Of a stretch of DNA of 64,000 nucleotides, positions 14,826 to 59,167 are shown in pieces. Positions within the stretch are counted from its first letter, which is position 1; the number at the start of each line of letters is the position of its first letter. The stretch is from NCBI GenBank assembly GCA_964016885.1, contig OZ024743.1, positions 292,268,001 through 292,332,000 of the forward strand. Reading direction: 5' to 3'. The position numbers were made by a program, and so were the translations under genes. Below the pieces are notes generated by a model. The model made no database searches. It worked only from the letters and a program-made list of their open reading frames with translations, and was not told where the DNA came from. This stretch comes from Eledone cirrhosa (lineage: Eukaryota).

Positions 14826-15182
<357 letters not shown>

Positions 15183-15225: not shown

Positions 15226-15226
<1 letters not shown>

Positions 15227-28351: not shown

Positions 28352-28430
<79 letters not shown>
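28352..28430. repeat. (TAA)n microsatellite at the left edge of array 2
   Basis: Seen directly. Confidence 0.95.
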
Positions 28431-28431
<1 letters not shown>

Positions 28432-31400
28432 TTTTCTTTATTAACCACAAGGGTTTACATAAAGTAGACATTAAGGCCAGTACAGGACAATACAGGACGG
28501 TACAAATGGGCATTTCTGCGTGTAAAAAAACAGAGGATGTAATAAAATAACAAAGAAAGATTCCCCAATAGGGGGGAGATTTCCGAGGGACATTTGTGGA
28601 GAAAGCCTATTAAAAGACCACAGTGACCCTGACCACCAGGGCAAGTGCCCTCTCCCAGTTTTCCACCTTTAATTTACAGACACATCCTCAGAGTAGGACC
28701 ATTCACTCGGGCCATTCTTGCCTCTCTCACCCATCTTTCAACAAAATGCTGGGAAGTGAGCACTTTCCTCTCTACCCTGATTTTCTTTTTCAAATGAAAT
28801 TTGAAAAAGTTAATCAGAGCATCACCGAAGAGGTAAGTGCTCGTCTTTAACCCTTTCAAACGTGTCCACCATACTATCTCTTTCGCCATGGCCACCAGTC
28901 AGATAAAAACTGCCTGCCCTTCCCGGCTAAAGGAAGAGGGCGAGGCAATCCTCACGATGGACTCAGCTGATAGCTGGATCCGCCCTTCACGCGACAGCAG
29001 GCGTTCGACATAAACCCACAAGTCAGCAATGCTCGGACACTGGACGAGTGCGTGCAGGACGGTTTCGTCGCCCTGCACGCATCTCGGACATGCCCGGCTG
29101 ACGGCACCACCATGCCTGTAGAGTTTATCTCGAACTGGCAAAGCTCCTCGGTAGCACTGCCAGGCCAGGGATTTCTGGAAGTTTTCCATAGGCCCCGGCC
29201 CGAAAGATCTTCCGAAGAGATTGGCTAGTTGATTTTCGTCGGCGCCTTGAATTTCTCCAAATACGTCGACGCTCTTCCCCTCCACTAATCCTCTATAGAA
29301 CGCCAAGGTGTAGTTTCCACCGATAACATTGCCCAATTGGTCGAGAGCTGTGAGCGCCTGAAGACATGCCAATCTCCAAGCGCTCCCTCACGGTCTTCGC
29401 TAGACCCAGGACTGCAGCTCCCTCAAGGAGACGAGCTGGGGTAAGACAGGTCTAGCAAACAGCGACCACACCTGATCACCGTCGAGGAAGAGGTGGAGAT
29501 GTCGTAGCCTGAGCGCGTGTCTGCGCATCATCAGCCATAACATGCCCAGCCCTCCACGTAGCGGGTGCTGACAGCAGATGGACAGCCTGACCATCGGAGC
29601 GCGTCCCTTCCACAAAAGGCGAAAGAGCAAACGTTCCAGCGAGTCAGGTGGGGCTTAGGACAGTATACAATAGTCAGGCGGTAGTAGATGATGGACGCGA
29701 TATACGGGTTAGCCAGTTCCGCTCGACCTTTCAGGGATAGCTTCCTCTCCGCACATTTCTGGGTGAGAAGCCACCCTGCTCGTCACCTCGTCCCAGCTTT
29801 TGTCCGTCTGGAGGTCCGGACCGAACCAGACCCCTAGCAATATAACCGGTCCGTCCGTCCAGTGCCTGACGACGCTGTTGGACGGCATGGACCTGCCTCT
29901 CCAGATGCCAAGCTGCAGGCCCACTGACTTTTCCTGGTTGATCATTGCTCCTGTCACCGCTTCGTATTCTCGCCGATCGCCTCGATATGTTTGGCGTTCG
30001 ACACCACTACGGTGACATCGTCCGCATAGGCTGACCCGGTCTTCCGCGTCCTAGTTCGCGTGGGATCCCCCTCAACATCTCCAGTTTGTGCAGTAATGGT
30101 TCGAGAGTCAATACGTACAAGAGGGACGAGAAGGGACATCCTTGGCGGACCGAGTGCATGATGTTGAACGGTTCCGAAAGGTGACCGTTCACTCTCACCA
30201 CAGTGCAGATGTCGCTGTGCACGGCAGCGATCCAGCCTCTGAAGACGGGCCCAAAGCCAGCCGCTGTTAGGACTGCCGCTAGGTAACGATGGTCGACCCT
30301 ATCGAAATCTTTCGACTGATCTAAATTGATCAAGGACAACCCGTGCCAGGTTCCCTAGCTACCCTCTCTACGATGTATCGCATGAGGTGGAGGTTGTCGT
30401 GGATGGATCTGTCGTGAATGGCGCATGTCTGCTCCTCTCCCACCAGACCACCAACGACAAGCCCCACCTCTTGCCTAGCACCTTGGCCAAAATCTTGAAC
30501 TCTGTGTTTAGCAAAGTTATGGGCCTGAAATTATCTATGTTATCCGACCTTGTACGGATCCTTTCTCAACAGCGCCACCGGACCTCGGTTCACAGAGCTG
30601 GGAATTCTCCCGTTCTGTTGCCAGTTGCTGTAGACGTCCGCCAAGAGGCCTACGAACAAGTCTGGCATCTGTACGTAAAGTTCATAGGGCAAACGATCCA
30701 AACCAGGCGATTTACCCCTTGTGCAGCCAGTCATTGCATCCCGTACTTCAGCGGCTGTTATCGTCTTTTCGCAACACTCTGCCTCAGTGGCCGAGAGCCG
30801 CGGCAGTCCGTCGAGGTAGACACTAATGTCCATCCCACGATCCGGCCCGCCGCTGCCCCCGAAAAGCTGAGCGAAGTGTCCCTGAAAAGCTTCACAGATT
30901 TGCCCGGGATCGAGTAGCATGCGCCCTTCGAGGTCCACCAAAGACCGGATCGTGCATTTGTTGCCACGACGCGCCTCCGCCACTCAGGCCCATTGAACGG
31001 CTTTCGTCCCCTCGTGTCTGAGAGCTCGAACCCTAGCTCTGCCAACGTAGTCTTCGTGCTTTGCATTGAAGAATTGGTCAAGGGCCAATTTCGCCGCAAG
31101 TACGTCGGTCGCAATGCCTTTGCTAAGCGCCTCGTCTAATGTTCTAACTAGTTCTCCCTTTGCTCTATTTTTCTCTATTGCTAAAGCCTTACTAAGCCTA
31201 ATGGACTCTATTCTAATCGCTATTTTCAGTGCAAACCACCACCTGTTGTTGACGATGGCCCCCGTCAACGCCCGCTTAACTAGTTCGCTAATCCGGTCCC
31301 TGTAGACCTTGCGCGCTGGTAAGGCGCGTTTACCTTCCAGTAGCCGAATCCTCGTGTATGAAGCCTATCTAAGTCAAGAACAAAAATCACGAATTTGTGG

Positions 31401-33577
31401 TCCGTGTAGCTGACTATCTTGAATTGTGGACAGCCTATACTAGACCTATCTATTTCCCTACAAAATACTCTATCTAGATATAATCTGGATGACCCGATGC
31501 GGTTTATCCGAATCCACATTGGCACATTCGGGAAATCCACTCAGTACCTGTCAGACAGTTCAAAACGCCTGAGCAAGTTGGTGAGGCTCTTGCACCCTCC
31601 TCCCCTCTCCGCTAATCCCACACAGTCCCAGCGTGCATCTAGGATCCCTTTCCAGTCGCCCACTAACACTAAAGTGAGGGATGTTCCAAGAAAGGTCTCC
31701 AGACGCCGGAAGAAATCAAGCCGCCCTGCCCCTGTCGGGGCATAGAGGGCCACTAGCCTGAAAGCTTACCCGTCTCCGCTGGTCACGTCCAGCCCCACCA
31801 ACTTACCTTCTGGGTCCAGGACGATGGCCCGTATGGCGAGATCCAAACCTCTCCGAAAAAGCACAGCAACTCCTCCCCCCGATCCAGGACGGCTGGGAGA
31901 TGCGTTCACATCGTAGCCGCCGAAGATCGGTGCGAAGGCCCGTGCTTCGGAGATTCTGGTCTCGCTGATGGCCACTACATCTATGTTTAGTGACCTGAGG
32001 TCTCTTGAGCAGGTGGCCCTGCTTCCATGACAACCCCAAGCCACGCGCATTTATGCTTCCTATTCTGAGTGAGGTCATGTTGAAATGGAGTGGAAAAAGA
32101 TGGGAAAGACCACTTACCTTACTTCTCGTAGAGGAAGGATGGTTTCTCCATCCTTTTCACTGCTTGTGGGTAAGAGAGGTGGCCTCAACTTTTTAGCCTG
32201 AGGGCAGAAACCCCTTATGTGGGTTCCTTCACCACAAACGACGGTTACGGTGAGGTGGCTGCCGTCAGTGAGGTCTATTACCTCTGGGATCTCCTCAATG
32301 CTTTTTTTGGTCCGCTTGGATCAGGAGCTCCATCCCAGATCCGGACCAGTTCTCCTGCTTTTCTTTTGCTATTTCTATTATTTTGGTGTTGGACTAGATG
32401 CCGGCGAGGACGGCAGCCATTAGCCAGAGAATTTCGATGGCTGGTGGAACGAGGGTCACCCTGATCTTTACGAGTCTCTGGCCACAATAGCTTGGGACGA
32501 GTGTGAAGTCGTGGCTTCTTAATGGGTCCATAGAGTGCTATCTGGCCTCCTGTGGTATTCCAAAGAACACGTCCACGGTTCCATATTTCTGGCCATGTTT
32601 GATGTGGTGTTTTTTTGCCCACACATGTCCCAAAGCTTTTTGGATTTGGGACTCTAATGCCTGTTCCACTCGGCGCGATTTTATGTTAATCGTCCGATAA
32701 GACACGGTGCATAGGCGCCGATGCTCCATTTTATTAGGTGTGGGGGGTGAGGCTGACCCTGTACCCATCTATCTTTACCATTGTTTTGGCTTCATCTAAT
32801 TCCTCCTGACTTACCTGGATTTTTTCCCAATTTTTGACTACTTTGGCAAACGACACGGTGTTGTTATTCTCATTGTTGTTGTTGCTGTTTTTGTTATTGT
32901 TATTTCTGTTATTGTTATTTTTAGTTTCACTGTCAGTGGTGTTCGGTGTGGAAGAGTCGATTCCGGGTGAATCGATTTCGATGTCACGAGATCATTTTTT
33001 TTTTGTTTCTGTTGTCGCTGTGGTGGTGGTGGGGGTGGCGGTTTCAACACCTGCAGTCAGTGGACGTGTTCTTTGGACCACCACAGGAAGCCAGAGAGCA
33101 CTCTATGGCCATATGAAGAAGCGACGACTTCACACTCGTCCCAAGCTATTGTAGCCAGAGACTCGTAAAGATCAAGGTGACCCTCGTTCCATCGGCCATC
33201 GAAATTCCCTGGCTAATGGCGGGAAATAAATGTCTTCATGAGACAAATTTAAATTATTGCTACTGCTTATAATTTTAGTGTTGGCAAACGTAGTAATATT
33301 TACAATGGTGCTGTTGGTGTGAGGTGTTAGTTTGTGAGGAAGGACTGACACTGAGTCCTCCATGATTTTTCAAAGAAAAATTTTTGTTTTATAATTATAA
33401 AAGTTTAAATTTTGGGCTCAAGGCCCCAATCTTTTTGGGTGTCCTTTTCAGATAATAATGTATGTGCACTTATATACAGTTAATAATAAAAAATTTCCAT
33501 AAATGGCAATTTTAAACAACTGAAAATAACAAGACTTTGCGGAGCTCACGATGATACGATTTATTACGTAGGTCGCC
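28431..33577 (-). mobile_element. Tx1-like T1, degenerate copy with both ends, an ~0.8-kb ORF1 deletion and an internal inverted duplication (T1b)
   Basis: Same 5' start (GGCGA) and 3' end as T1a. Many frameshifted ORF pieces. Confidence 0.9.
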
Positions 33578-33612
33578 AATAATAATAATAATAATGATAA
33601 TAATAATAATAA

Positions 33613-33674
<62 letters not shown>
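33578..33674. repeat. (TAA)n microsatellite
   Basis: Seen directly. Confidence 0.95.
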
Positions 33675-33675
<1 letters not shown>

Positions 33676-33704
33676 GGGAAGAATAATAATAAGAATAAGG
33701 GAAG

Positions 33705-34600
33705 AAGACGCACGAGGTGACGGAGGTCATGAAATCGCTCCCGTAAGTTTTGAATTTTTAACATATTTAAATCATTTGTGAAATAACAACTCTTAGTACA
33801 AATGCTACGTAAAGCACCCGGCTTGAGCCCCAAAAAAATTCGGACCCAAAATATATTGTTATAAGGCTCAAATATTCAAATATTCAACTTTGTATTGTAC
33901 ACTGTATATCCAAAAAAAAATGGCTATAAATGGAAGAAGAAGAACCCCCCCCCCCTCCTCTCCTCTGGCTACACTATATAGGACAGCTAAACTCACCAAC
34001 ACCAGAAACTAGATACACCACCCACCCCATCATCTGTGTACACTGAACACAACAGCATTTTCACCTTCACCGCCACCGCTCACTACGGCCATCATTACCA
34101 CCACTATCCCATCACCGCCGCAACCACCCCTTGACTCCTTCACTGCTGCTGCCACCGCTACAGCACCATCACTACAGTAATACGGCTCAAATATTCAAAT
34201 ATTCAACTTTGTATTGTACACTGTATATCCAAAAAAAAATAAAATGGCTATAAATGGAAGAAGAAGAACCCCCCCCCCTCCTCTCCTCTGGCTACACTAT
34301 ATAGGACAGCGAAACTCACCAACACCAGAAACTAGATACACCACCCACCCCATCATCTGTGTACACTAAACACAACAGCATTTTCACCTTCACCGCCACC
34401 GCTCACTACGGCCATCATTACCACCACTATCCCATCACCGCCGCCACCACCCCCTGACTCCTTCACTGCTGCTGCCACCGCTACAGCACCATCACTACAG
34501 TAATACGGTCGCATCACCGCCACCACTGCCTCGGTATCGACATCACCACCACCACTGTCTCAGTATCGCCAACGACGCCAGTCTCTGCTGGCTACCACTT
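33705..34600 (+). repeat. Unclassified repeat X with an internal ~320-bp tandem duplication, upstream of B4
   Basis: 33865-34185 is repeated at 34184-34508. Homologous to the X copies at 1.8-2.7 kb and 8.3-8.9 kb. Confidence 0.75.
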
Positions 34601-34849
34601 CCACATTATAGAATTCCTAATACTAACAAAGAGGAAGGCATCAAAATATATAGATAGACTCAAAAGAAAAAAGAAAAAACAAACAACAAAAGCAGCACAG
34701 CAACAACAGTAAAAAACGAGAAAAACAGAGAAAAACAAAAACAAAAAAAGAAACCCCAAAAACGTAAAGAAAATAAGAATGAAGAGAGAAGCAGGCGGAC
34801 GGACAGAGAAGAGGGGGGAAAAAGTAAAACTTAAAAAACAAAAACTAAG

Positions 34850-37800
34850 TCAGACATTCGAATACTACATTACAATGAAACTTATGCTTATTCATTTTTG
34901 GGGCCCTTTCTGCCCGTGTGTTTGTTTGTTTATGTGTGTCCGTATACAGCGTGGTGATAATGCCACACAAGGGCCAAGTGGGATGGCGGATCCACAGATG
35001 GCTATGTAAACATACATTCGCCAATCCTCGATAAGAGTGTTTAAATATCGAACATAAACAGTTCGAATAACGGTGAAATGGAGACTAGAACGTCATGTGA
35101 CAGACTCTCACCCAACAGGTGCCCCCTGGCTCAGCAGCAGGAACCTGACTGTCAACCAAATACTGCTGATGTTGGAGGAAGAAGAAGAAGGAAAGGGGCC
35201 AGAACCAACTGGACGAAAGAATTGAATAGAACTGTTATGCAATGCTACCTGAAAAGTAACCCCAAGGAGAGGGGCTACAGGAGACGGATGCATAACATCT
35301 GGAACGAGATTGGTTTATTTAAATTAGATGAACAAAAATTGGCCGGGCAGGCTCGGGTAATAAGAACTAATGGGTGGATAAGCGAGCTGGAACTGGAGGA
35401 ACTGAGCAGAGAGAATGGCTTGGAGTTGGCGGGTGTAGTATGCCAGACAAGCGAGCCGGCGGGAAATGAAGGTGAGGAGGTCCTGAGAACGGAGGAACCA
35501 CCCGAAGCAGACAATGATCTGAATACTGAGATAAATAATACCTGGAACAGAGAAACGGCCACTGAGGAGATGAATGCTGACGGGCTAGGACAAGATTCGG
35601 TTGACATCCTAAATTTAGTGGTAGATGAGTTGAACAATGATAGTGGGAGACCTATGAACCTAAGATTTGTAGACAGGAAAAAGTTAAAAGAAACAACAGC
35701 TAAGGTAAACAAAGTCATCCCATACCTTGAGGCGAGGAGTCTTCACCAGTGCAACAATATCCTCAAAGCAACAGCAAATACGGTGAGGAAACTACTTGGT
35801 ATAAAAGCGAGAGGAAACAACAGACAAGAAAGAGCAGAGCCGTGGTGGAAGAAGCGACTGAGTGGGCAAATCGGGGAAATGAGAAATGACATAGGAAAGC
35901 TTGAGTCACTACTGAATGGGACACTAAAAAACATAGGCACTAAAAATAGACTGGAAATAAAATACAAAACTAGGAGTAAAAAGCTAAATATTATCATAGA
36001 GGAATTGAAGCAACGCATTGTAGCAAAGAGTGCCAAAATCAGGCGATACGAGAACAGAGTCAGTCAGTATAAACAGAACCGCATGTTCGACAACAACCAG
36101 AAGATGCTGTTTGGACAGCTTGAGGGGAAAGAAAGAGGCAACGACTTGATCCCTGGGGCGGAACAAGCTAAAACATTCTGGAGAGGAATATGGGAGCAGG
36201 ATGTTAGACACAATGCCCAGGCAGGGTGGATTGAGACAGTACAGAGGGAGATCGGTGAGCAGGCACAGCAACAGACTGATTTGAGTATCACAGTTGAAAC
36301 TCTTAAGGGGCAAGCCAAAAAACTAACCAACTGGAAATCACCAGGCCCAGATGGTGTGCAGGGGTATTGGATTAAACATTTAACATCCCTCCACCCGAAG
36401 CTGACGGCCATGTTCAATGACTGCTTGGTGTCGGGTGAGGTGCCAGAGTGGTTGACAAAAGGTACCACAGTTCTGATAATGAAAGACCGAATCAAGGGTA
36501 ATGATGTTACCAACTATAGACCTATCACATGTCTGCCCGTAATGTGGAAACTCTTGACGAGCATTGTGTCTGAGGAAATCTACCATCACCTCCACACAAA
36601 CAACTTGTTGCCGGACGAACAGAAAGGATGCCGAAAGAAGTCACGTGGTACAAAGGACCAGTTGCTTATTGATAAGATGGTAATGGGGAATTGCAGGAGG
36701 AGACACACTGATCTTGCCATGGGATGGATAGACTACAGAAAGGCATTTGACATGGTGCCTCATTTCTGGATCACCAAAAGCCTGGAGATCTTCAGGGTGG
36801 CAGATAACATCAGACAGTTGCTGGGCAGGAGTATGGGGTCCTGGGAGACAGAGTTGACATCAACTGGAGTATCCTTGGGAAGCGTGAAGATCAAGAGAGG
36901 TATCTTCCAGGGAGATAGCCTGTCCCCTCTGTTGTTTGTCCTTGCCCTGATGCCCTTGACCATTATGCTGCGAAAAGTGAGAGCAGGATACAAGTTGGGA
37001 AGGGGAGAGCTTACCATCAATCACCTCCTCTTCATGGACGATCTTAAGCTCTTCGGGAAAAGTGAGAAGGAGTTGGATGTGCTTGTTGACACTGTCCGTA
37101 TTTTCAGCAGTGATATATGTATGCAGTTTGGTATTGGTAAATGTGGAGTCATTGTGATGAGGAGGGGTAGGTTGAGCAGAAGTAACGGGATCCAGATACC
37201 AACAGGTGAGATGATAAAGGAAATTGACTCTGAGGAAGGATACAAGTATTTGGGCGTTCTGGAGGCTGATGGCATAAAGAACAAAAAAATGAAGGAATTG
37301 TTAAGAACTGAATACATTCGGAGAGTAAGGAGCGTATTGAAGTCACATCTGAACAGCAGAAATGCCATAAGCGCAGTAAATTCCCGAGCTGTGTCTATTA
37401 TTAGGTACAGTGCGGGAATTCTGAGATGGAATGTTGCTGAACAAAAAGAAATGGATAGGAAGACTAGGAAGCTATTGACTATCTACAACATGTTCCACAA
37501 GAGGAGTGATGTCGATAGACTCTACCTAAGGAGATCTGAGGGTGGAAGAGGTCTTATCAGCATAGAGGACTGTGTTCAGATGGAGAAAAACAACCTATAC
37601 AAATACGTGACCTATAGTAAGGAGCCAATGCTCAGAGCTGTACTGAAGGAGGGGACAGTAGGCCAGGGGATACCAAAGGAGGAAATAACATCAAGGAGGG
37701 AGAGCAGCCTTAAGGGAAAATCCCTTCATAGTACCTTCTTTGAGAAAACTGAATTTAGAGATCCACAGACATGGAACTGGTTGAGAAGAGGAGACCTCAA

Positions 37801-38544: not shown

Positions 38545-38580
38545 AATAACAACAATAATAATAATAATAATAATAATAAT

Positions 38581-41500: not shown

Positions 41501-44500
41501 CCTGGTCCCTGTAAGCCTTACGTGCCGCAAATGACATGTTTAGCTTCCAGTAACCAGGTCCTAACCTACGCGTCTAACTAGGTCGGCCATACAGATCACA
41601 AACTTGTGATCTGAATAGGCCACCGTTTCAAAACGTGGACAGTTTACACTATTTCTGTCTATTTTCCTAATGAATATCCTGTCTATATACGATCTAGATG
41701 ACCCTATGCGGTTAGTCCAGGTCCACACTGGCGCATTAGGGATATCTAGTTGGTACCTGTCAGACATTTGGAACTGGCTGATCAGGTTCTTAGAGGCTTT
41801 TGCACCCACCCCCCACCCGCTCCTATCGGATACTCCGACACAGTCCCAGCGTTCGTCTAAGATGCCGTTCCAGTCCCCCGCTAACAGTAAAGGGCGAGAC
41901 ATACCCAGAGAGGCTTCCAGGCGTCTAAAGAAGTCCGGCCGTCCTGCCCAGTAGGAGCATAGATGGCCACCAGTCTAAAGGCACCACCTTCGTTATTGTT
42001 CACGTCGAGGACCACCAACTTCCCGTCCGGGTCCCGGAAGATCGACCTTACCTCGAGATCCAGGCCTTTCCTAAACAGCACTGCCACCCCGCCTCCCATT
42101 CCCGGCCAACTAACAGATGCAAAGATCTGATAGTCGTCGAAAATGGGGGCTAGTGCGCGCGTGTCGGAAATCCTGGTCTCGCTGACGGCAATTACATCCA
42201 TTTCTAGAGACCTGAGGTCGTTGAGCAGGTGTCCCTGCTTCCAGGACGATCCCAGGCCTCGCACATTTAATCGTCCTACTCTTAATACGGCCACGTTGAC
42301 AGGTTAAAAAGAGAGAGGAAAGGTTTACTTACCTTCCGGGCTCTTGTGAAGGTTGGGTGGTTCGACTTCCATTGTTGGTGGGGTTTCTTTTGGAAACCCC
42401 TTTAAAGGTCTTGAAGTGGGTTTTACGTTCGGGGTTCCCACGTCCCGAGGAAAGCTGTCTCGTATTTCTTTGTATAAATCGAGCGACATTCGCACCAGAA
42501 ACAAATCTTCCGGCAAGCGAAATGTGCTCGATTTAAAATGTCCCCCTCTTTTAGTATATTTTCCCTTCGTGCTACGAGGGCCATCAGTTCCTTGTTGGCC
42601 CTCCTGACGCGCACCAAGTTTTGTATGTTTTGTTGGTGTGATTTTATTTGTTTGCGTGGCTGTGGTTGTGATGGTTTTGGTGGTGTTGTTTCGGTTGTGT
42701 CTGTGTTTGTTGTGAGTGCGGTGTCTGTGGTTTCAGATGTTTGTGTGTATATTTGTTCTTGCGTCTGTTTCAGTTGTTTGCGTTTGGGGGATTCTGGTGA
42801 TGGTGATGGTGGTGTTGATGTTGGTGTTATTGGAGAGATGTTTGCGTGGGTGTTGTCTGCGTTTTGTACTGTGGGTGATTTTGTGCTTTGTTGATTTTTT
42901 TTGTCTTTTTGTGTTTCCTTTTTTGTATTTTGGGGGATTTGGGCTTTTCCTCATCTTCACTACTGGTAGATAAGGTTTCTCTGTCTGTAAGTGTGTCTGT
43001 GTGTATGTTTATGTTTTTATTGGTGTGTGTATTTGGGTGGAGGGATTTAACAGCTCTCCTCGTTCCCCCCCCTGAGTGGTCAATGTTTGTGGTGGTCATT
43101 CTATTGGTGTTGTTGTTGGTGGATTTGCCGGTGCTGGTGTTGGTTGTGGTCCTCTCCCAGGCGTCGGCAGCAGTGGAGCCTTTGAACCCTTGCCTCTTTC
43201 AGCAGTTGAGGGCAGAAGGTTAGCAAATGGGTTTTTTCCCCACAAACAAAACAATGCGGTCTTTTCAGTTCGGTCATAATGTGAATGACCGTCCCATTCT
43301 GAAGGCGGATGTGGTCCGGGATTGTCTTCACATTCTCGGGCCTAATCTGGAGAAGGATCTCCAGGTCAACCTGGACCAGTCCTCTCTGGCCGTTCTGGTC
43401 ACTTCTATAAGGACGGTATCCGTCCCCTCCACAATCACACATCCCAGAAGCCACCACATGTCTAGTCCTGGTGGAATTCTGGGAATGCGGAGGCGGGCCG
43501 TTCTTGTTCCCATGTGGGAGGGGTACATTATGACCTTGCTGGTTTTGCAAGGAGTCATAGCGTGTTTCATAGCGAGGGCTTCTGACTTGAACAACACCGA
43601 AATGGTGCCGTACTGTCTGCCCCTCGCTATGTATTCGGTGTCTTCTCTGATGCACTACAGCGCGACTTCGACATCTGCGTGTGGGATTAAAGCTGCCCTT
43701 TTGGTTTGTGCTGAGATGCATCTATAAAGCACCGTTCTGCGCTCCACTGCCTCAATAGCTTCTACCGGGACAATTATGTTGACCCAGGTTTGCTCTTGTT
43801 TGATGTGCTTCCATGCCTGGGCCAACTTTTCATATTTGTTTGAGAGGTCCATGTTGAAGCATGGCCTCTCTTTTGCTGCTGCCGCAGCGAAAGTGTTCTT
43901 GATTTCGTTGGGGGTGTTGTTGTCGTTGTCGTTGTTCTTGTTGGTATTGTTGTTATCACTGTCGCTATTATCATTGTTGTCTTTGTTGCCACCGTTGTTC
44001 TCGGTGCATTTGGTATTGTTGCTGTTGGTGTTGTCGCTATTTGTTTTCATGTTAGTGGTGTTGATATTTTTGTTGCATTTGTCAATTTTTTTATTATCTG
44101 TATTTTCGTTGTCGCTGTTACTGTCATTTTTTTCCAAAATTAGAGTTCTCTTTGGTATCATTGGTGTCTTTGTTTACATTGTTTGTGGTGGTGTTTGTGT
44201 TATCAATTTGTGTTAATTTCGCTGTAGAGCTCCTCTCAACTTCCACGTCGTTGTCGCACGCCAGCAGACATATCGCTGGGGCGCGTGGCTCAGCCATGAT
44301 TTTTTTTTTCTTGGTAAATTTTTTAAAATGTAAAAAAAGTTCAAATATTTGGGCCAAAAGGCCCAAATATTATTCTTCCCCCTTCACAGGGCAAAGTCCA
44401 AAGGCTTCTATGCCTTACACAACAACAAAAATTCAAAAAATCAGTTTTGATAGGTAAATAAGTGAACTTACGGGAGCGAGCAAAAAGACGTCCGTTCAGA

Positions 44501-44503
44501 CTC
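38581..44503 (-). mobile_element. Tx1-like family T2, full-length disrupted copy
   Basis: ORF1 has CFVCGEKTHLLTFC. ORF2 fragments include APE (LNVRGL, AVSET), RT (RQGCPLS, AYTDD) and CPRC..HALVQC. Clearly diverged from T1, with TAA on both flanks. Confidence 0.9.
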
Positions 44504-44530
44504 AATAATAATAATAATAATAATAGAAAT

Positions 44531-44610
44531 GCTTTCTTTATTAACCACAAATGTTTACACAAAGTAGACATTAAGGGCAGTACAGGACAATACAGGACAA
44601 TACAGGACAA
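44531..44610 (-). mobile_element. T1 3'-terminal ~80-bp fragment (T1c)
   Basis: Matches the T1 3' UTR at 28431-28500. Confidence 0.8.
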
Positions 44611-44706
44611 GAAGAAGAAGAAGAAGAAGAAGAAGAAGAAGAAGAAGAAGAAGAAGAAGAAGAAGAAGAAGAAGAAGAAGAAGAAGAAGAAGAAGAAGAA
44701 GAAGAA
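44609..44706. repeat. (GAA)n microsatellite
   Basis: Seen directly. Confidence 0.95.
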
Positions 44707-44708
44707 TT

Positions 44709-46322
44709 TGTTGTTTGTCCTTGCCCTGATGCCCTTGACCATTATGCTGCGAAAAGTGAGAGCAGGATACAAGTTGGGAAGGGGAGAGCTTACCATCAAT
44801 CACCTCCTCTTCATGGACGATCTTAAGCTCTTCGGGAAAAGTGAGAAGGAGTTGGATGTGCTTGTTGACACTGTCCGTATTTTCAGCAGTGATATATGTA
44901 TGCAGTTTGGTATTGGTAAATTTAGAGTCATTGTGATGAGGAGGGGTAGGTTGAGCAGAAGTAACGGAATCCAGATACCAACAGGTGAGATGATAAAGGA
45001 AATTGACTCTGAGGAAGGTTACAAGTATTTGGGCGTTCTGGCGGCTGATGGCATAAAGAACAAAAAAATGAAGGAATTGTTAAGAACTGAATACATTCGG
45101 AGAGTAAGGAGCGTATTGAAGTCACATTTGAACAGCAGAAATGCCATAAGCGCAGTAAATTCCCGAGCTGTGTCTATTATTAGGTACAGTGCGGGAATTC
45201 TGAGATGGAATGGTGCTGAACAAAAAGAAATGGATAGGAAGACTAGGAAGCTATTGACTATCTACAACATGTTCCACAAGAGGAGTGATGTCGATAGACT
45301 CTACCTAAGGAGATCTGAGGGTGGAAGAGGTCTTATCAGCATAGAGGACTGTGTTCAGATGGAGAAAAACAGCCTACACAAATACGTGACTGATAGTAAG
45401 GAGCCAATGCTCAGAACTGTACTGAAGGATGGGACAATAGGCCAGGGGATGTCCAAGGAGGAAATAACATCAAGGAGAAAGAGCAGCCTTCGGGAAAAAT
45501 TCCTTCATAGTACCTTCTTTGAGAAAACTGAATTTAGAGATCCACAGACATGGAACTGGTTGAGAAGAGGAGACCTTAAAAAGGCTACAGAAGGAATGTT
45601 AATGGCTGCGCAGGAGCAGGCTCTCAAAACGAAGTGGTTGAAACACCATATTTACAAGGAGGAGGCTAGCCCACTGTGCAGGATCTGTGGAGAGAGAGAG
45701 GAGACTGTGGCTCACATTGTATCCGAGTGTAAACACCTAGCCCAGACCCACTATAAGGGCTGGAGACATGATGTGATGGGCAGGGTGATCCACTGGCACC
45801 TGTGCAAAGTAAACAATTTACCACATTCTGAGAAATGGTATCAGCATAAGCCAGAGGCGGTGATGGAGAACGATCAGGTGAAGGTGCTGTGGGATTTTAG
45901 GATACAGACGGACAAGAAACTGGAACACAATAGACCTGACCTGGTGGTTGTGGACAAAGAAAAAAGATCGTGTCTGATTGTGGATGTGGCCTGCCCATTC
46001 GACACGGGAGTGCAAGAGAAGGAGAGGGAGAAAATTAACCGATACCAGGACTTAAAGTGGGAGGTAAAAAGGATTTGGAACTGCCATGAAGTCAAAGTGA
46101 TGCCGATTGTCATAGGCGCACTGGGGACTATCTCCAAAAGTTTCCAGGGATGGTTAAAGAAAATCGGCCCCTTCACGCTTTTTGGAACGCTTCAAAAGGC
46201 ATGCTTGCTGGGAACAGCAAGAACCCTCCAATACGTCCTGAATATCTGAGGCTGCAGGTAGTGGCTTGATATTCATTCCAACGGACTTTCCAGTTAACTA
46301 ACATCAATGACTGAGATTCAAG

Positions 46323-46323
<1 letters not shown>
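44709..46323 (+). mobile_element. R4/Dong family B, 5'-truncated copy with an open frame (B5)
   Basis: Near-identical to B4 36929-38544 and open to the stop at 46249. TAA tail. Confidence 0.92.
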
Positions 46324-46383
<60 letters not shown>

Positions 46384-46385
<2 letters not shown>

Positions 46386-46682
46386 TTTCTTTATTAACCA
46401 CAAGGGTTTACATAAAGTAGACATTAAGGACAGTGCAGGACAATGCAGGACGGTACAAATGGGCATTTCTGCGTGTAAAAAAACAGAGGTTGAAATAAAA
46501 TAACAAAGAAAAATTCCCCAATAGGGGGGGGGGGGAGACTTCCAAGGGACATTTGTGGAGAAAGCCCATTAAAAGACCACAGTGGCCCTGACCACCAGGG
46601 CAAGTGCCCTCTCCCAGTTTTCCACCTTTAATTTACAGACACATACTCAGAGAAGGCCCATTCATTCGGGCCATACTTGCTT
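46384..46682 (-). mobile_element. T1 3' fragment (T1d)
   Basis: Matches 47428-47721. TAA on both flanks. Confidence 0.9.
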
Positions 46683-46714
46683 ATAATAATAATAATAATA
46701 ATAATAATCACATC

Positions 46715-47350
46715 AAAATACCCACAGCGAGCTAACAATCCTGATGTTGACAAAATACATACATTGGATAATGTGAAAGCATTTTGACCTGCCCCATCAA
46801 AAGAATTGGTGGGAGCATCAACCACCTCCCATACTTGAAAAAGATCACATCTCAAACTTGTGGAACTTTAGCATCCAAACAGACCGAAAAATAGACGCAA
46901 ATAGACCTGATATAATATTGAAGGACTTTAAAAAGAGGGTATGCCTGCTAATTGATATGTCTGTTCCAATAGACAAGAATGTATCTATAAAAACATTTGA
47001 AAAATTGACAAGTATAAGGACCTGCAGATAGAAATTGGAAAAATGTGAAAATTGAGAACTAAAACAATACCAGTGGTTGTAGGCGCTCTGGGAATGATAC
47101 CTAATGATTACTTATCGCAAATCCCAGGAAACCCGCGTGTAGGAGAAATACAAAAGATAGTACTAATGGGAACTGCCCATATACTAAGGAAGATTCTGTC
47201 AATATAAGTACATCACAAGTCTAAACACTAAAGATGCATGTGTGAGTATGTGTGTTCTTTCTTGAACATGGCGGACCTTGTTGTCTCTTGAGGTCACTGG
47301 TTGTGACTTGGTGATAACTCGTATGAACATAAAGCAAGATAAATGCAACT

Positions 47351-47351
<1 letters not shown>
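46715..47351 (+). mobile_element. R4/Dong family A, 3' fragment with an internal deletion (A3)
   Basis: Reverse complement of 4447-5330 with a gap. TAA on both flanks. Confidence 0.88.
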
Positions 47352-47428
<77 letters not shown>

Positions 47429-47671
47429 TTTTCTTTATTAACCACAAGGGTTTACATAAAGTAGACATTAAGGACGGTACAGGACAATACAGTACGGTAC
47501 AAATGGGCATTTCTGCGTGTAAAAAAAACAGAGGATGAAATAAAATAACAAAGAAAAATTCCCCAATAGGGGGGAGACTTCCGAGGGACATTTGTGGAGA
47601 AAGCCCATTAACAGACCACAGTGGCCCTGACCACCAGGGCAAGTGCCCTCTCCCAGTTTTCCACCTTTAAT

Positions 47672-50600
47672 TTACAGACACATACTCAGAGAAGGCCCAT
47701 TCATTCGGGCCATACTTGCTTCTCTCACCCATCTTTCAACAAAATGCTGGGAAGAGAGCACTTCCCTCTCTACCCTGATTTTCCTTTTCAAATGAAATTT
47801 GAAAAAGTTAATCAGGGCATCACCGAAGAGGTAAGTGCTCGTCTTCAGCCCTTTCAAACGTGTCCACCATACTATCTCTTTCGCCATGGCCACCAGACAG
47901 ATAAAAACTGCCTGCCCTTCCCGGCTAAAGGAAGAGGGCGGAGCAAACCTCACGATGGACTCAGCTGATAGCTGGATCCGTCCTACACGTGACAGCAGGT
48001 GTTCGACATAAACCCACAAGTCAGCAATGCTCGGACACTGGACGAGTGCGTGCAGGACGGTTTCGTCGCCCTGTGCGCATCTCAGACATGCCCGGCTGAC
48101 GGCACCTCCATGCTTGTAAAGTTTATCCCGAACTGGCAAAGCACCCCGGTAGCACTGCCAGGCCAGGGATTTCTGGAAGTTGTCCATAGGCCCCGGCCCG
48201 AAAGTCCTTCCGAAGAGATTGGCTAGTTGATTTTCGTCGACGCCTAGATTTTCTCCAAGTACGTCGTCGCTCTTCCCCTCCACTAATCCCCTATAGAACG
48301 CCAAGGTGGAGTTTCCACCGATCACATTGCCCGATTGGTCGAGGGCTGTGAGCGCCTGAAGACATTCCAGTCTCCAAGCGCTCCCTCTCGGTCTTCGCTT
48401 GACCCAGGACTGCAGCTCCGTCAAGGAGACGAGCTGGGGAAAAACGTGTCTAGCAAACGGCGACCACACCTGATCACCGTCGAGGAAGAGGTGGAGATTT
48501 CGTAGCCTGAGCGCGTGTCTGCGCATCATCAGCCACGGCATGCCCAACCCTCCACATAGTGGGTGTTGACAGCAGATGGACCGCCTGACCATCGGAGCGC
48601 GTCCCTTCCACAAGAAGCGAAAGAGCAAACGCTCCAGCGCAGTCAGGCGGGGCTTAGGACAAGGTACGACGGTCAGGCGGTAGTAGATGACGGACGCGAT
48701 GTACGCGTTAGCCACCTCCGCTCGACCTTTCAGGGATAGCTTCCTCTCGGCCCATTTCTGGGTGAGAGAAGCCACCCTGCTCGTCACCTCGTCCCAGTTT
48801 TTGTCCGTCTGGAGGTCTGGACCGAACCAGACCCCTAGCAATTTAACCGGTGCGTCTGTCCAGCGCCCGACGACGCTGTTGGACGGCATGGAACTGCCTC
48901 TCCAGGTGCTGAGCTGCAGGCCAACTGACTTTTCCTGGTTGATCATTGCTCCTCTCACCGCTTCGTATTCTCTTAGTGTAGTGCCGATCGCCTCGATGTG
49001 TTTGGCGTTCGACACCACTACGGTGACATCGTCGGCATATGCTGACACGGATCTTCCGCATCCTAGTTCGCGCGGGATCCCCCTCAACGTCTCCAGTTTG
49101 TGCAGTAATGGCTCGAGAGTCAATACGTACAATAGGGACGAGAGGGGACATCCTTGGCGGACCGAGCGCATGATGTTGAACGGTTCCGAAGGGTGACCCT
49201 TCACTCTCACTACAGAGCAGATGTTGCTGTGCATGGCAGCGATCCAGCCTCTGAAGACGGGCCCAAAGCCAGCCGCCCTCAGGACTGCCTCTAGGTAACG
49301 ATGGTCGACCCTATAGAAGGCTTTCGACTGATCTAAATTGATCAAAGACCCACCCGTGCCAGATTCCCTAGCTAACCTCTCTACGATGTATCGCATGAGG
49401 TGGAGGTTGTCGTGGATGGATCTGTCGGGAATGGCGCATGTCTGTGCCTCTCCCACCAGACCACCAACGACAAGCGCCAACCTCTTTGCTAGCACCTTGG
49501 CCAAAATCTTGAACTCTGTGTTTAGCAGAGTTATGGGCCTAAAATTATCTATGTTATCCCCCTTGTTCGGATCCTTTCTCAGCAGCGCCACCGCTCCTCG
49601 GCTCACAGAGCTGGGAATTCTCCCGTTCTGTTGCCAGTTGCAGTAGACGTCCGCCAAGAGGCCTCCGAACAAGTTTGGCATTTGTACGTAAAGTTCATAG
49701 GGCAGACCATCCAGACCAGGCGATTTACCCCTTGTGCAACTAGTCATTGCATCCCGTACTTCAGCGGTTGTTATCGGCTTTTCGCAACACTCCGCCTCAG
49801 TGGCCGAAAGCCGCGGCAGTCCGTCGAGGTAGACACTAAAGTCCATCCCTCGATCCGGCCCGCCACTGCCCCCGAACAGTTGAGCGAAGTGTCGCTGAAA
49901 AGCTTCACACATTTGCTCGGGATCGAGTAGCATGCGCCCGTCGTGGTCCACCAAAGACCGGATCGTGGCTTTGTTGCCACGACGCGCCTCCGCCACTCGG
50001 GCCCATTGAACGGCTTTCGTCCCCTCGTGTCTGAGAGCACGCACCCTAGGTCTGACAACGCAGCCTTCGTGCTTTGCATTGAAGAATTGGTCAAGGGCCA
50101 ATTTCGCCGCAAGTACGTCGGTCGCGATGCCTTTGCTAAGCGCCCCATCTAATTTTCTAACTAATTCTCCCTCTGCTCTATTTTTCTCTATTGCTAAAGT
50201 CTTACTAAACCTAATGGACTCTATTCTAATTGCTCTTTTCAGAGCAAACCACCACTTGTTGTTGACGATGGCCCCCGTCAACGCCCGCTTAACTAGTTCG
50301 CTAATCCGGTCTCTGTAGGCCTTGCACGTTGGTAAGGACGCGTTTAGCTTCCAGTAGCCGGGTCCTCGCCTATGAAGCCTATCTAAGTCAAGCACACAGA
50401 TCACGAATTTGTGGTCCGTGTAGCTGACTATCTTGAATTGTGGACAGCCTATGCTAGACCTATCTATTTCCCTACAAAATACTCTATCTAGATATGATCT
50501 GGATGACCCTATGCGATTTGTCCAAGTCCACATTGGTACATTCGGGAAATCCATTCGGTACCTGTCAGACAGTTCAAAACGTCTGAGCAGGTTGGTGAGA

Positions 50601-51091
50601 CTCTTGCACCCTCCTTCCCTATCCACTAATCCCACACAATCCCAGCGTGCATCTAAGATCCCGTTCCAGTCGCCCACTAACACTAAAGAGCGGGACGTTC
50701 CAAGAAAGGTCTCCAGACGCCGGAAGAAATCAGGCCGCCCTGCTCCTGTCGGGGCATAGACGGCCACTAACCTGAAAGCTTGCCCGTCTCCGCTGGTCAC
50801 GTCCAGCACCACCAACTTACCTTCTGGGTCCAGGAAGATGGCCCGTATGGCAAGATCCAAACCTCTCCGAAAAAGCACAGCAACTCCTCCCCCCGATCTC
50901 GGACGGCTGGGAGATGCGTACACATCGTAGCCGCCGAAGATCGGTGCGAAAACCTGTGCTTCGGAGATTCTGGTCTCGCTGATGGCCACTACATCTCTGT
51001 TTAGTGACCTGAGGTCGTTGAGCAGGTGGCCCTGCTTCCATGACAACCCCAAGCCACGCGCATTTATGCTGCCTATTCTGAGTGAGGTCAT
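47672..51091 (-). CDS. Tx1-like ORF2: APE endonuclease, reverse transcriptase and zinc-binding domain (1139 aa)
   Basis: SINARGL, AISET, VGDWN, LDRVF, YTDH; KSPGLDG, NFRPITLLN, RQGCPLS, AYADD; CLRC..ETVLHALVQC. Confidence 0.93.
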   Translation of the reverse strand: MTSLRIGSINARGLGLSWKQGHLLNDLRSLNRDVVAISETRISEAQVFAPIFGGYDVYASPSRPRSGGGVAVLFRRGLDLAIRAIFLDPEGKLVVLDVTSGDGQAFRLVAVYAPTGAGRPDFFRRLETFLGTSRSLVLVGDWNGILDARWDCVGLVDREGGCKSLTNLLRRFELSDRYRMDFPNVPMWTWTNRIGSSRSYLDRVFCREIDRSSIGCPQFKIVSYTDHKFVICVLDLDRLHRRGPGYWKLNASLPTCKAYRDRISELVKRALTGAIVNNKWWFALKRAIRIESIRFSKTLAIEKNRAEGELVRKLDGALSKGIATDVLAAKLALDQFFNAKHEGCVVRPRVRALRHEGTKAVQWARVAEARRGNKATIRSLVDHDGRMLLDPEQMCEAFQRHFAQLFGGSGGPDRGMDFSVYLDGLPRLSATEAECCEKPITTAEVRDAMTSCTRGKSPGLDGLPYELYVQMPNLFGGLLADVYCNWQQNGRIPSSVSRGAVALLRKDPNKGDNIDNFRPITLLNTEFKILAKVLAKRLALVVGGLVGEAQTCAIPDRSIHDNLHLMRYIVERLARESGTGGSLINLDQSKAFYRVDHRYLEAVLRAAGFGPVFRGWIAAMHSNICSVVRVKGHPSEPFNIMRSVRQGCPLSSLLYVLTLEPLLHKLETLRGIPRELGCGRSVSAYADDVTVVVSNAKHIEAIGTTLREYEAVRGAMINQEKSVGLQLSTWRGSSMPSNSVVGRWTDAPVKLLGVWFGPDLQTDKNWDEVTSRVASLTQKWAERKLSLKGRAEVANAYIASVIYYRLTVVPCPKPRLTALERLLFRFLWKGRAPMVRRSICCQHPLCGGLGMPWLMMRRHALRLRNLHLFLDGDQVWSPFARHVFPQLVSLTELQSWVKRRPRGSAWRLECLQALTALDQSGNVIGGNSTLAFYRGLVEGKSDDVLGENLGVDENQLANLFGRTFGPGPMDNFQKSLAWQCYRGALPVRDKLYKHGGAVSRACLRCAQGDETVLHALVQCPSIADLWVYVEHLLSRVGRIQLSAESIVRFAPPSSFSREGQAVFICLVAMAKEIVWWTRLKGLKTSTYLFGDALINFFKFHLKRKIRVEREVLSSQHFVERWVREASMARMNGPSLSMCL

Positions 51092-51125
51092 GTTGAAAAG
51101 GAGTGGAAAAGATGGGAAAGACCAC

Positions 51126-52830
51126 TTACCTTACTTCTCGTAGGGGAAGGACGGTTTTTCCATCCTTTTCACTGCTTGTGGCCTCCTCAGGAAGGATGTC
51201 CTTATAAATCCTCCTGGAGAGTGCTTGTCGGAAGTCTCCGATGTCTTTGGGGAATGTTTGTTTTAGTGTCATGTACGTTTTCTGTGTGATGCGAGTGATT
51301 TGTATGTGTGGAGGTGGTGTGAATTTTGGGGTTGTTGTGTAGTCTTTTTCTGTGATGCTGGTGTTGTGTTGGATGTAGTGCAATAATTGCTTGTTGTTCA
51401 AATTTAATGCTGTGAAGTGTGTATCGTTTTGGTTGTTTTGTTTTGTTTGCGTTTGTTGTGGGTTTGTTTCTGTTTCGCATTTTGGTGACTTTTGTGGTGT
51501 AGGTGATGGTGGTGTTGGAGTTAATGATGGTGATGGTGTTGGTGTTTGGGTTGATGGGGTTGGTGATGCTGGTGTGGATGGTGGCATATCTGTCCTAACT
51601 TTTTTGTTTCTTAGTTTATTTGTTTCCCTCTGTATTTTGTTTTTGGAGGGGGAAGGAAGAGAATTTTTTCTTTTTTGGTTTCTTTTTTTTTTTCCGGATA
51701 TCGTTTCCCACTCCTCGTCGTCACAATCTGTCTCCAGTTGTGATAGGCCGGGGAGTGGAAAATCCTCCACAGCCGTTAGTTTTGGTTGTGGTGTGGTGGA
51801 TGGTGTAGGCGCTGGTGCTAGTTCTGAAGCGTTGGGTGGTGGTGGTGTTGGTTTTGCTGGTGGTGGTAGTGGTGTTGGTTTTGCTACTGTTGCTGGGGTT
51901 GTTGCTGTTATAGTTGCTTCTGTTGTTGCTGCTACAGTTGTTGCTGGCATCTCTGCTACTGGTGGTGTTGATGGTTGTGTCACTGGGGTGGGTAGGAGAG
52001 GTGGCCTCAACCTTTTAGCCTGAGGGCAGAAAGCCCTTAGGTGGGTTCCTTCACCACAAACGACACACCTAGGTCTTCTGCCCTCGACAATTACCGTGAG
52101 GTGGCTGCCGTCAGTGAGGTCTATTACCTCTGGGATCTCCTCAATGCTTTTTTGGTCCGCTTGGATCAGGAGCTCCATCCCAGATCCGGACCAGTTTTCC
52201 TGCTTTTCTTTTGCTATTGTTATTATTTTCGTGTTGGCCTCGATGCCGGCGATGACAGCCGCTATTAGCCAGGGAATTTCGATGGCCGGTGGAACGTGGG
52301 TCACCCTGATCTTTACGAGTCTCTGGCCACAATAGCTTGGGACGAGTGTGAAGTCGTCACTTTTTAATGGGGCCATGGAGTGTTCTCTAGCCTCCTCTGG
52401 TGTTTCAAAGAACACATCCACGGTTCCATACTTTTGCCCACGTCTGATGTGGGTTTTTCTTGCCCACACATGTCCCAAAGCTTTTCGGATTTGGGACTCG
52501 GATGCCCGTTCCACTCGGCGCGATTTTACATTTATTGTTCTATACGACACGGTGCACAGGCGCCGATGCTCCATTTTATTAGGTGGGGGGGGGGGGGGTG
52601 AGGATGACCCTGTACCCATCTTTCTTTACCATTTGTTTGGCATTTTCTAAATCTTCTTGAGTTACCGTGAACGCTTCGAATTGTTTTGCTACTCTGGCGA
52701 AACTGAGGGTCGGTTTTATAATGTCATTGTTGTTGTTGTTGCTATCGTTGATATTAATTTTATTTTCAGTTCTGGTGGTGGTGACGTCAGTCGTCTTTGG
52801 TGGGGAAGAGTCCATTTTGCTTGATTTCAT
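51126..52830 (-). CDS. Tx1-like ORF1 (gag-like, CX2CX4HX4C knuckle, Pro/Thr-rich linker), with a frameshift at a G-run near 52590
   Basis: ORFs 52579-52878 and 51126-52619 join across a homopolymer, which may be a sequencing error. Contains CVVCGEGTHLRAFC. Confidence 0.8.
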
Positions 52831-52849
52831 TTCGACATCACGCAGTATT

Positions 52850-54030: not shown

Positions 54031-54088
<58 letters not shown>

Positions 54089-54148
54089 AATTATTTAAAA
54101 AATAATGAATAAACAAAGAAACAGTTCCTTATATTAAACAAAAAAAGT

Positions 54149-54289
54149 TCATTATTTTACGATCGTTTCTAGGACATATATGTGTTAGAATTGGTATGCA
54201 TATTCAAAAGATCTATGTACAAAATTATACAAACTATCAGAGTGAATATACATACCTTCACATATATATGCTGTCTTCAGAAATAATGA
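54149..54289 (-). ncRNA. Type I hammerhead ribozyme with long stem II (inverted copy)
   Basis: Reverse complement of 57190-57330. Confidence 0.6.
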
Positions 54290-54544
54290 TGCTTGTTTAT
54301 TGATAATAACAACAATTCAAAATAATAGGTCTGTTTGGGAACAGATTTTAAATAGACCAATGAAATAAAGATTGAGATACATAAACATTTATCAAGAAAA
54401 TACAGTTAGGTGTGTATATATGTATGTAAATACGCTCACAGATGTGCATAAAAGTGTATGCTCATATGTATACGTATAGTGAAAAAGTGTATGTAAATAT
54501 AAAATTTAGGGCTAATGTATCTGTATGTCTGTAATCAACAGACA

Positions 54545-54590
<46 letters not shown>

Positions 54591-57189: not shown

Positions 57190-57330
57190 TCATTATTTCT
57201 GAAGACAGCATATATATGTGAAGGTATGTATATTCACTCTGATAGTTTGTATAATTTTGTACATAGATCTTTTGAATATGCATACCAATTCTAACACATA
57301 TATGTCCTAGAAACGATCGTAAAATAATGA
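57190..57330 (+). ncRNA. Type I hammerhead ribozyme with long stem II
   Basis: Stem I tcattattt/aaataatga; CTGAAGA at 57199; GAAA at 57310; palindromic ACGATCGT; GTA cleavage triplet at 57319-57321. Confidence 0.65.
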
Positions 57331-59155: not shown

Positions 59156-59167
59156 ATATATATATAT

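Follow-up and report, generated by a model that had tools for sequence, protein, structure and literature searches.

What brings retrotransposons of two unrelated endonuclease types into the same microsatellite, facing opposite ways? The question is raised by a 64,000-nt stretch of Eledone cirrhosa contig OZ024743.1 (hereafter the window), in which copies of retrotransposons without long terminal repeats (non-LTR) form two arrays spaced by AAT/ATT tracts. Four families take part: A and B, with a single open reading frame (ORF), are R4/Dong-like elements with a restriction-like endonuclease (RLE), and T1 and T2, with two ORFs, are of the L1/Tx1 type with an apurinic/apyrimidinic endonuclease (APE). 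We consider it probable that A and B on the one side, and T1, T2 and a short interspersed element (SINE) on the other, use the same AAT/ATT microsatellite in fixed opposite orientations, the R4 type likely priming on the TTA strand and the Tx1 type on the TAA strand, with the strand probably chosen by nicking together with RNA pairing. The shared targeting with opposite polarity is itself real, genome-wide and well supported.

Two endonuclease types on one repeat

The class assignments follow from protein motifs and best matches. B4, a full-length family B copy, has an intact ORF with reverse transcriptase (RT), a CCHC finger and a PD..D motif, and family A has the same motifs; in the R4-type protein P0001 the order is RT, CCHC finger and RLE (FMDD at 663, CX2CX8HX4C at 952, RPD..D..K at 1037), with no APE, and the best sequence and fold matches of the B4 protein are R2 proteins. 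In the T1 copy T1e, ORF2 is intact and encodes APE catalytic motifs, RT and a zinc finger, and ORF1 has a CCHC knuckle. Tx1-type elements carry the Pfam domains PF03372, PF00078 and PF13966 and the motifs NARG, SET, GDWN, SYLD, TDH and YADD, with CX2CX4HX4C in ORF1, and T1e ORF2 finds its best match in human L1 ORF2p (E = 4e-51, versus 4e-20 for R2). A and B therefore belong to the RLE type, and T1 and T2 are L1-group elements of the APE type. The names Dong and Tx1, given in an initial annotation made from the letters of the window, are supported by predicted architecture and by target, not by a tree with named members, and none of the homologs found for the A/B or T1/T2 proteins carries an element name. 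T1 and T2 combine a two-ORF layout of L1-group affinity with sequence-specific insertion into a repeat, and A and B have the (TAA)n on both sense flanks that marks the R4 type, as the counts below detail. Of two metagenome scans, the first, with protein P0002, found no relative, and the second only distant ones (22-40% identity); a simple repeat accompanied 17 of these 80, and a TTA/TAA run none. In the full model of the B4 protein, residues 58-128 form a confident four-helix module that has no Pfam match and is modelled poorly as a domain alone (pLDDT 48).

Polarity was counted across the 3.0-Gb genome. The 30-40 best matches were taken for each family piece, 10-kb stretches were fetched around 39 T1 and 20 B copies, and a further 40 stretches of 10 kb, evenly placed at round coordinates on large contigs and not a random draw, served as control (the even sample). 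Outside the window there are 359 de-duplicated junction tracts of at least 15 nt, of which 341 touch a known element. At these tracts Tx1-type ends read TTA on the sense strand in 207 of 207 cases (73 on the 5' side), R4-type ends read TAA in 288 of 292 (136 on the 5' side), and SINE ends read TTA in 37 of 38. These counts exclude chance as the cause of the polarity and support the initial proposal that both clades sit on one AAT/ATT repeat with opposite polarity. The same repeat stands out in the even sample, where the elements touch 13/15 TAA tracts, 0/9 GAA, 0/46 CAA, 0/17 GAT, 0/46 GA, 1/128 CA and 4/327 TA tracts; copies of at least 85% identity cover about 1.5% (Tx1 type) and 0.5% (R4 type) of this sample. 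TAA precedes all 20 of 20 full-length B copies. A whole-genome pattern count found 1692 T1 5' ends, 1588 of them directly after TTATTATT; two of the other 104 were fetched, and both have interrupted TTA tracts.

Because the repeat before a full-length copy could be the element's own, 5'-truncated copies with an intact 3' end provide a stricter test. Among Tx1-type copies of this kind 22 follow TTA, none TAA and 12 neither, with 20 distinct truncation points; among R4-type copies 70 of 76 follow TAA, none TTA and 6 neither, with 67 truncation points (Fisher p = 1e-21 for the contrast; background about 2% per repeat). A lack of TTA at the 5' flank of most Tx1 copies, which by the initial annotation would have spoken against targeting, is not what the T1 pattern count and the truncated copies show. 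Targeting is thus real in both clades; in the Tx1 type it is looser, or the flank is more often deleted afterwards. Target duplications are masked inside pure repeat, but one T2 copy (locus L156) lies in a 2-unit target with a 15-nt duplication beginning ATTATT and no added tail, and a short Tx1-tailed piece (L019) has an 18-nt duplication.

The truncated copies also bear on an alternative in which only the R4 type targets the repeat: the TTA tail of the Tx1 type would be of its own making, the TTA at its 5' end would be carried along or added by it, and R4-type elements would then invade those tracts. Full-length T1 always joins as ATT|G, and 12 of 34 truncated Tx1-type copies, like T1e in the window, lack the 5' repeat, as such a scheme would have it. 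It is hard to reconcile, however, with the 22 truncated copies broken at 20 points that have TTA and never TAA before them against a 2% background, with the 16 tail-to-tail pairs, out of 41, whose younger member is T1 (see below), or with several other 5' ends of different sequence that also follow TTA, and we regard it as very improbable.

Several observations weigh against shared targeting as a strict rule. In targeted loci the polarity is broken by four R4-type ends, which come from three loci and resemble inversions or fragments, and by one SINE end; in the even sample one R4-type and one SINE end have unexpected polarity. A (GAA)n/(TTC)n tract sometimes replaces the repeat (copies B5 and T1c in the window; 11/19 GAA tracts in targeted loci). 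The 12 of 34 truncated Tx1-type copies with neither repeat belong here too, and at most of those inspected no target duplication was found. The truncated count leaves out 22 Tx1-type and 19 R4-type pieces without the expected flank that abut an element piece or a reference boundary (internal deletions, later insertions), and an earlier unfiltered pass with a narrower rule gave 14/30 for T1 and 63/72 for R4. Copies were, moreover, picked by likeness to the young window copies, not by flank, and old copies are under-sampled.

Inverted element pieces with a TAA-to-TTA flip at the junction occur at five loci (L298, L331, L080, L092 and L329), as could result from 5' inversion or from recombination afterwards. 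Inside arrays, long (GAA)n/(TTC)n tracts (window 44609-44706; loci L035, L040, L119, L175, L242 and L249) often lie right before an A/B leader starting GAAGAAGA, and may arise by slippage at the 5' junction.

The SINE (15226-15414 (+), 1714-1829 (+) and many other loci) makes up about 2.5% of the even sample. The copy at 15226-15414 we take, on the strength of a B-box-like motif, to be tRNA-derived. Its 3' end resembles Tx1 3' ends and its polarity is that of the Tx1 type at 37 of 38 ends; it is likely a passenger of Tx1-type long interspersed elements (LINEs).

The arrays of the window and their growth

The window consists of two GC-richer blocks amid AT-rich microsatellite DNA. Self-BLAST, ORFs, Pfam and direct reading resolved eight R4-type copies (A1-A3, B1-B5) and six Tx1-type copies (T1a-e, T2) across both arrays, in agreement with the initial annotation, and added what it had overlooked, namely a ninth R4-type piece (leader only, 1826-2670) and the SINE copies. 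Array 1 (about 19 kb) has its left end some 2 kb outside the window and its right end at 17467, all its tracts being TTA on the + strand; array 2 occupies 28352-52842, with all tracts TAA on the + strand except one (AAG)32. The features are as follows.

1-1655, - strand: A1, 5'-truncated R4-type copy of family A, extending about 2 kb beyond the window to its TAA tail
1656-1711: (TTA)18 tract, 5' flank of A1 (sense TAA) and of the SINE head (sense TTA)
1714-2692: fragment of an A/B-type leader (-, 1826-2670) interleaved with pieces of SINE (+)
2708-4425, - strand: B1, 5'-truncated family B, TAA on both sides
4447-8862, - strand: A2, family A copy of near full length, leader present; RT, CCHC and PD..D RLE motif in a broken ORF; TAA on both sides
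8863-8927: (TTA)21 tract, A2 and T1a head-to-head
8928-14826, + strand: T1a, full-length Tx1-type copy of 5.9 kb, broken ORFs, TTA on both sides
14827-14933: (TTA)36 tract, T1a and B2 tail-to-tail
14934-15182, - strand: B2, 250-nt 3' stub, TAA on both sides
15226-15414, + strand: tRNA-type SINE, TTA on both sides, 3' end like Tx1 3' ends
15433-17467, - strand: B3, 5'-truncated, TAA tail; 5' flank is unique DNA (exception)
28352-28430: (TAA)26, left end of array 2 and T1b tail
28431-33577, - strand: T1b, full-length 5' end, ORF1 with a deletion and a rearranged piece, TTA on both sides
33578-33696: imperfect (AAT)40 tract, T1b and B4 head-to-head
33697-38544, + strand: B4, full-length copy of family B (4848 nt); leader of 1.38 kb containing a 323-bp tandem repeat; ORF of 1130 aa at 35078-38470, intact (RT, CCHC, PD..D RLE)
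38545-38580: (AAT)12 tract, B4 and T2 tail-to-tail
38581-44503, - strand: T2, full-length copy of the second Tx1-type family; ORF2 DNA 73% identical to that of T1; ORFs broken; TTA on both sides
44525-44606, - strand: T1c, 3' stub of about 80 nt, TTA tail; 5' flank (TTC)n (exception)
44609-44706: (AAG)32 tract between T1c and B5
44707-46323, + strand: B5, 5'-truncated, TAA tail; 5' flank (GAA)n (exception)
46384-46682, - strand: T1d, 300-nt 5'-truncated T1, TTA on both sides
46709-47351, + strand: A3, 5'-truncated family A, TAA on both sides
47352-47427: (TAA)25 tract, A3 and T1e tail-to-tail
47428-52842, - strand: T1e, 5'-truncated; intact ORF2 at 51091-47672 (APE, RT, zinc finger), ORF1 with CCHC knuckle; TTA tail; 5' flank is unique DNA (exception)

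The polarity rule had been put forward as free of exceptions. This holds for the tails (TAA at 7/7 R4-type tails in the window, TTA at 6/6 Tx1-type tails, and the A1 tail just beyond the window also conforms) and fails for the 5' flanks, 4 of 14 of which lack the AAT repeat: those of B3 and T1e are unique DNA, and those of B5 and T1c are one common (GAA)32 tract. No window copy has a poly(A) tail, and the (TAG)28, (TAG)21 and (TA)n tracts hold no element end, both as first described. Because each tract is common to two neighbours, so that 14 ends are not 14 independent events, and because tails may be element-made, the window by itself is weak evidence for targeting.

Insertions leave the repeat on both sides, with medians of 9-15 units. 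Each insertion splits one tract into two, and tail slippage may lengthen the tracts; since one tract yields two, more insertions from either clade, as well as unequal exchange between tracts, would enlarge the arrays. The idea that insertion regenerates the target, so that arrays grow, is thus upheld as to the flanking repeat, with the amendment that tandem duplication also contributes: at G000:C28:114444325-114459490 four near-identical full-length A copies stand in tandem at 4955-bp spacing with (TAA)7-8 joints (L223-L226, L318, L319), and L251 and L053 hold other local tandem duplicates (repeated stubs). Mixed arrays, which reach 20-30 kb, occur elsewhere too, and at one site the array spans the whole 30 kb fetched. 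Colonisation has gone in both directions. With the distance to the third-nearest sampled copy as age proxy, 16 of the 41 pairs joined tail-to-tail have T1 as the younger member and 7 have R4, while in 18 the two are alike. The array is a shared, self-renewing landing site, and no cooperation between the clades is required.

Recombination, segmental duplication or mis-assembly at a low-complexity repeat, in place of targeted insertion, would produce exact local duplicates such as the four-copy A array on C28 and those at L251, L053 and L063/L064. Neighbours are nevertheless truncated at different points and diverged to different degrees (0-11% from the nearest relatives sampled), and solitary copies on many contigs show the same polarity. 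As the main cause of the arrays this explanation is already largely refuted, and we find it scarcely credible beside targeted insertion.

Copy identity points to recent activity in both clades: over 204 nt, 40 5' ends of B are 100% identical, T1 copies are 98-99% identical, and the ORF is kept in 8/18 measurable full-length B copies and ORF2 in 1/26 full-length T1 copies. These young copies are relevant to the suggestion that mixed arrays act as mutual-silencing or piRNA (PIWI-interacting RNA) source loci, read-through of one clade being antisense to the other. What speaks for it is geometry, with 46 tail-to-tail and 37 head-to-head R4/Tx1 junctions (besides 68 R4-R4 and 15 Tx1-Tx1), and an AATAAA near the T1 3' end which, with no poly(A) in any copy seen, fits read-through. 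Yet neighbours assort near randomly (odds ratio 0.60, p = 0.17), young copies persist in both clades, and no T1-plus-antisense-R4 unit, the mark of 3' transduction, is common to separate loci among the 20 clusters inspected; we therefore hold a silencing role to be distinctly unlikely. Candidates for such transduction of antisense R4 stubs by T1 were rejected, similar truncation points in those clusters being the same locus twice, local duplicates or slightly different breaks. The common downstream flanks at L052, L057 and L059 (94-96% alike, 1.7-1.9 kb) are best read as another repeat.

The 5' part of T1b holds a 163-nt T1 ORF1 piece in a second, rearranged place (33060-33222). Among (TA)n tracts lie a 925-bp inverted repeat pair, 95% identical (54086-55010 and 56504-57393), and a 430-bp tandem repeat with inverted sub-parts (57990-59157), together possibly a DNA transposon or miniature inverted-repeat transposable element in TA repeats. 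A 264-codon open frame in very AT-rich DNA (19919-20713 (-)) has no Pfam match.

Strand choice and its precedents

In target-primed reverse transcription, the strand that acts as primer is complementary to the element's sense 3' flank. Given this mechanism, the observed polarity would have R4-type elements prime reverse transcription on the TTA strand and Tx1-type elements on the TAA strand. The initial annotation had two endonucleases nicking opposite strands; this is supported in part, in that priming on opposite strands follows, and the endonucleases themselves would be one candidate for choosing the strand. The strand is probably selected by strand-selective nicking, reinforced by pairing of the 3' repeat of each RNA. 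We prefer strand-selective nicking because target choice is set mainly by the endonuclease according to Kojima 2015 (PMC4494074) and because the L156 insertion needed almost no pairing.

RNA pairing alone is a serious rival to endonuclease strand choice, since both strands of the AAT repeat carry TpA steps and B RNA carries repeat units of its own. Here the endonucleases would not be strand-selective and both strands would be nicked, (AUU)n RNA annealing only to the TAA strand and (AAU)n RNA only to the TTA strand. Interrupted tail units pass from source copies to B copies (two variants are common to 32/105 and 15/105 copies), so that B RNA extends at least 12 nt into the repeat; all Tx1-type and SINE 3' ends pass directly into ATT with no poly(A); and human L1 cleaves at TT/AAAA-type sites (PMC3812793). 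On the other hand, the T2 insertion at L156 entered a 2-unit target without adding a unit, so that not much pairing seems to be required, T1 showed no inherited tail variants, and the endonuclease mainly sets target choice in the account cited above (PMC4494074). We judge polarity by pairing alone to be possible but doubtful, and strand-selective nicking reinforced by pairing remains our preferred account.

Each side of the pair has known relatives. Dong-like elements target (TAA)n in insects, molluscs and cnidarians (PMC7998251, PMC3812793), and primer design places TAA on the sense 5' flank of Dong (PMC3774820). Like Dong of Bombyx mori, DongAg, DongBg and Darwinula Dong1/2, A and B have a single ORF with RT and C-terminal RLE and a (TAA)n target; unlike Dong, they carry a 1.4-kb leader common to two families only 32-36% identical in protein, and share their target with an APE element. 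R4/Dong elements are described with an N-terminal SANT/Myb-like domain and no zinc fingers (PMC7998251). Bombyx mori Dong has a hepatitis delta virus (HDV)-like ribozyme at its 5' end (PMC3774820), whereas Rfam, which may miss HDV-like ribozymes, detects none at the 5' end of A or B: positions 28000-53000 gave no ribozyme match at E <= 1 and one chance match only. Microsatellite-specific Tx1 families, namely Kibi, Koshi and the crocodilian (TTCC)n and (TTTC)n elements, are APE-type like T1 and T2 and target TC, TTC, TTCC and TTTC (PMC4494074), names that, if taken to denote the sense strand as we assume, are T-rich like TTA. T1 and T2 differ from Kibi and Koshi in targeting (TTA)n, in residing in an invertebrate-type host genome and in being co-arrayed with R4-type elements; Kibi/Koshi-type targets are not used here, as GA/TC (0/46) and GAA/TTC (0/9) tracts of the even sample touch no element and TTC is only an occasional neighbour of TTA in the arrays.

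The nearest precedent for how the pair works is TRAS and SART of Bombyx mori telomeres, two LINE families that form arrays in one simple repeat in opposite orientation (PMC10088271). Those elements are both APE-type, of the R1 clade and telomeric, in contrast to an APE and an RLE element at thousands of interstitial sites of a dispersed microsatellite; A/B and T1/T2 work like the TRAS/SART pair and are not members of it. In 28S rDNA, R1 and R2 place an APE and an RLE element in one multicopy niche, at separate unique sites and in the same orientation; they resemble the present pair in sharing a niche and differ in that the target is a gene, not a self-renewing simple repeat. Among cephalopods, Dong-R4 and L1-Tx1 LINEs are reported to be abundant and to have been active recently in Octopus vulgaris (PMC13282606, Table 1) and to have expanded in coleoids (PMC8967140), and the available parts of these accounts give counts only, with no target repeat, polarity or mixed arrays. 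General background is given in PMC4640811, PMC3747384, PMC4758252 and PMC8869645. Every ingredient thus has a precedent. A TTA-specific Tx1-type lineage and an APE/RLE pair on one microsatellite appear to be new within the literature searched, the accessible full text containing neither a TTA-targeting Tx1 nor a Tx1/Dong co-array (Repbase, Dfam and the tree figure and supplements of PMC4494074 lie outside this coverage).

Leaders, donor-like motifs and implications

The coding DNA of A and B aligns over 41 bp only, while the first 336 nt of their leaders are 77% identical (window 33697-35077 (+) and 7920-8862 (-); L223-L226); leaders so alike in families with proteins only 32-36% identical point to leader exchange. 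A SINE tail in sense orientation lies within the A leader, so that leaders would seem to take up array DNA from their neighbourhood. The segment 33697-34560 was considered as a third Tx1 5' end and rejected, being the B leader. Further 5' ends beginning with G directly after TTA are found at L013, L042, L049 and L062 (cluster C8), L060 and L204, L066 and L133, L135, and L182; at least one of these Tx1 5' ends leads to an ORF2 about 95% like that of T1 with a different ORF1 and 5' untranslated region, which suggests ORF1/leader swapping among Tx1 families.

T2 and B have in common a 15-mer, TCGCTCCCGTAAGTT, within 60 nt of their 5' ends (window ~44467-44481 (-) and ~33735-33749 (+)). It ends in a splice donor-like sequence and is a possible promoter or first-exon motif used across clades. 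Other Tx1 5' ends have GTAAG near the corresponding position, followed by T-rich DNA.

A donor-like motif also lies at the end of ORF1. In at least 7 divergent Tx1 lineages, and in 37/41 distinct contexts, the ORF1 stop falls inside GGTAAGT, a perfect 5' splice-site motif (window ~51126 (-), ~11122 (+), ~32115 (-) and ~42330 (-); L066, L253, L263, L287, L300 and L041), and a pyrimidine-rich spacer of variable length (28-45 nt) separates it from the ORF2 start. The Arg codon of the ORF2 motif L-R-(I/V)-G is AGA in nearly all contexts and could be an in-frame acceptor. Among 48 distant relatives GGTAAGT at the ORF1 stop is present in 1 and absent in 47. A search for retrocopies spliced at this donor returned 2 matches versus 1108 unspliced, neither of them spliced, with a pattern that misses products with G as first or T as second letter. 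U1 binding or regulated splicing would be guesses at the role of the motif.

A broader joint reading would have an undescribed (TTA)n-specific Tx1 lineage and its SINE converge on Dong's microsatellite from the other strand, the two clades creating and occupying most long AAT tracts of a 3-Gb genome as thousands of head-to-head and tail-to-tail arrays, with 5' promoter-like leaders swapped, read-through yielding cross-clade antisense RNA, and ORF2 expression in Tx1 perhaps controlled through a U1-type donor at the stop of ORF1. Taken as a whole this is speculative and rather unlikely.

The opposite-polarity pair itself has several consequences. It adds (TTA)n, within the literature searched, to the targets of Tx1-type elements, and it accounts for the location of most long AAT microsatellites (13/15 in the even sample), which is relevant to marker design and repeat annotation. 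The sharing of leaders by deeply divergent families suggests that arrays are sites of LINE 5' module exchange. With an APE and an RLE retrotransposon on opposite strands of one 3-bp repeat, each with an intact coding copy in the window, the locus is a natural paired experiment, and it makes testable whether endonuclease specificity or RNA-primer pairing sets orientation in target-primed reverse transcription.

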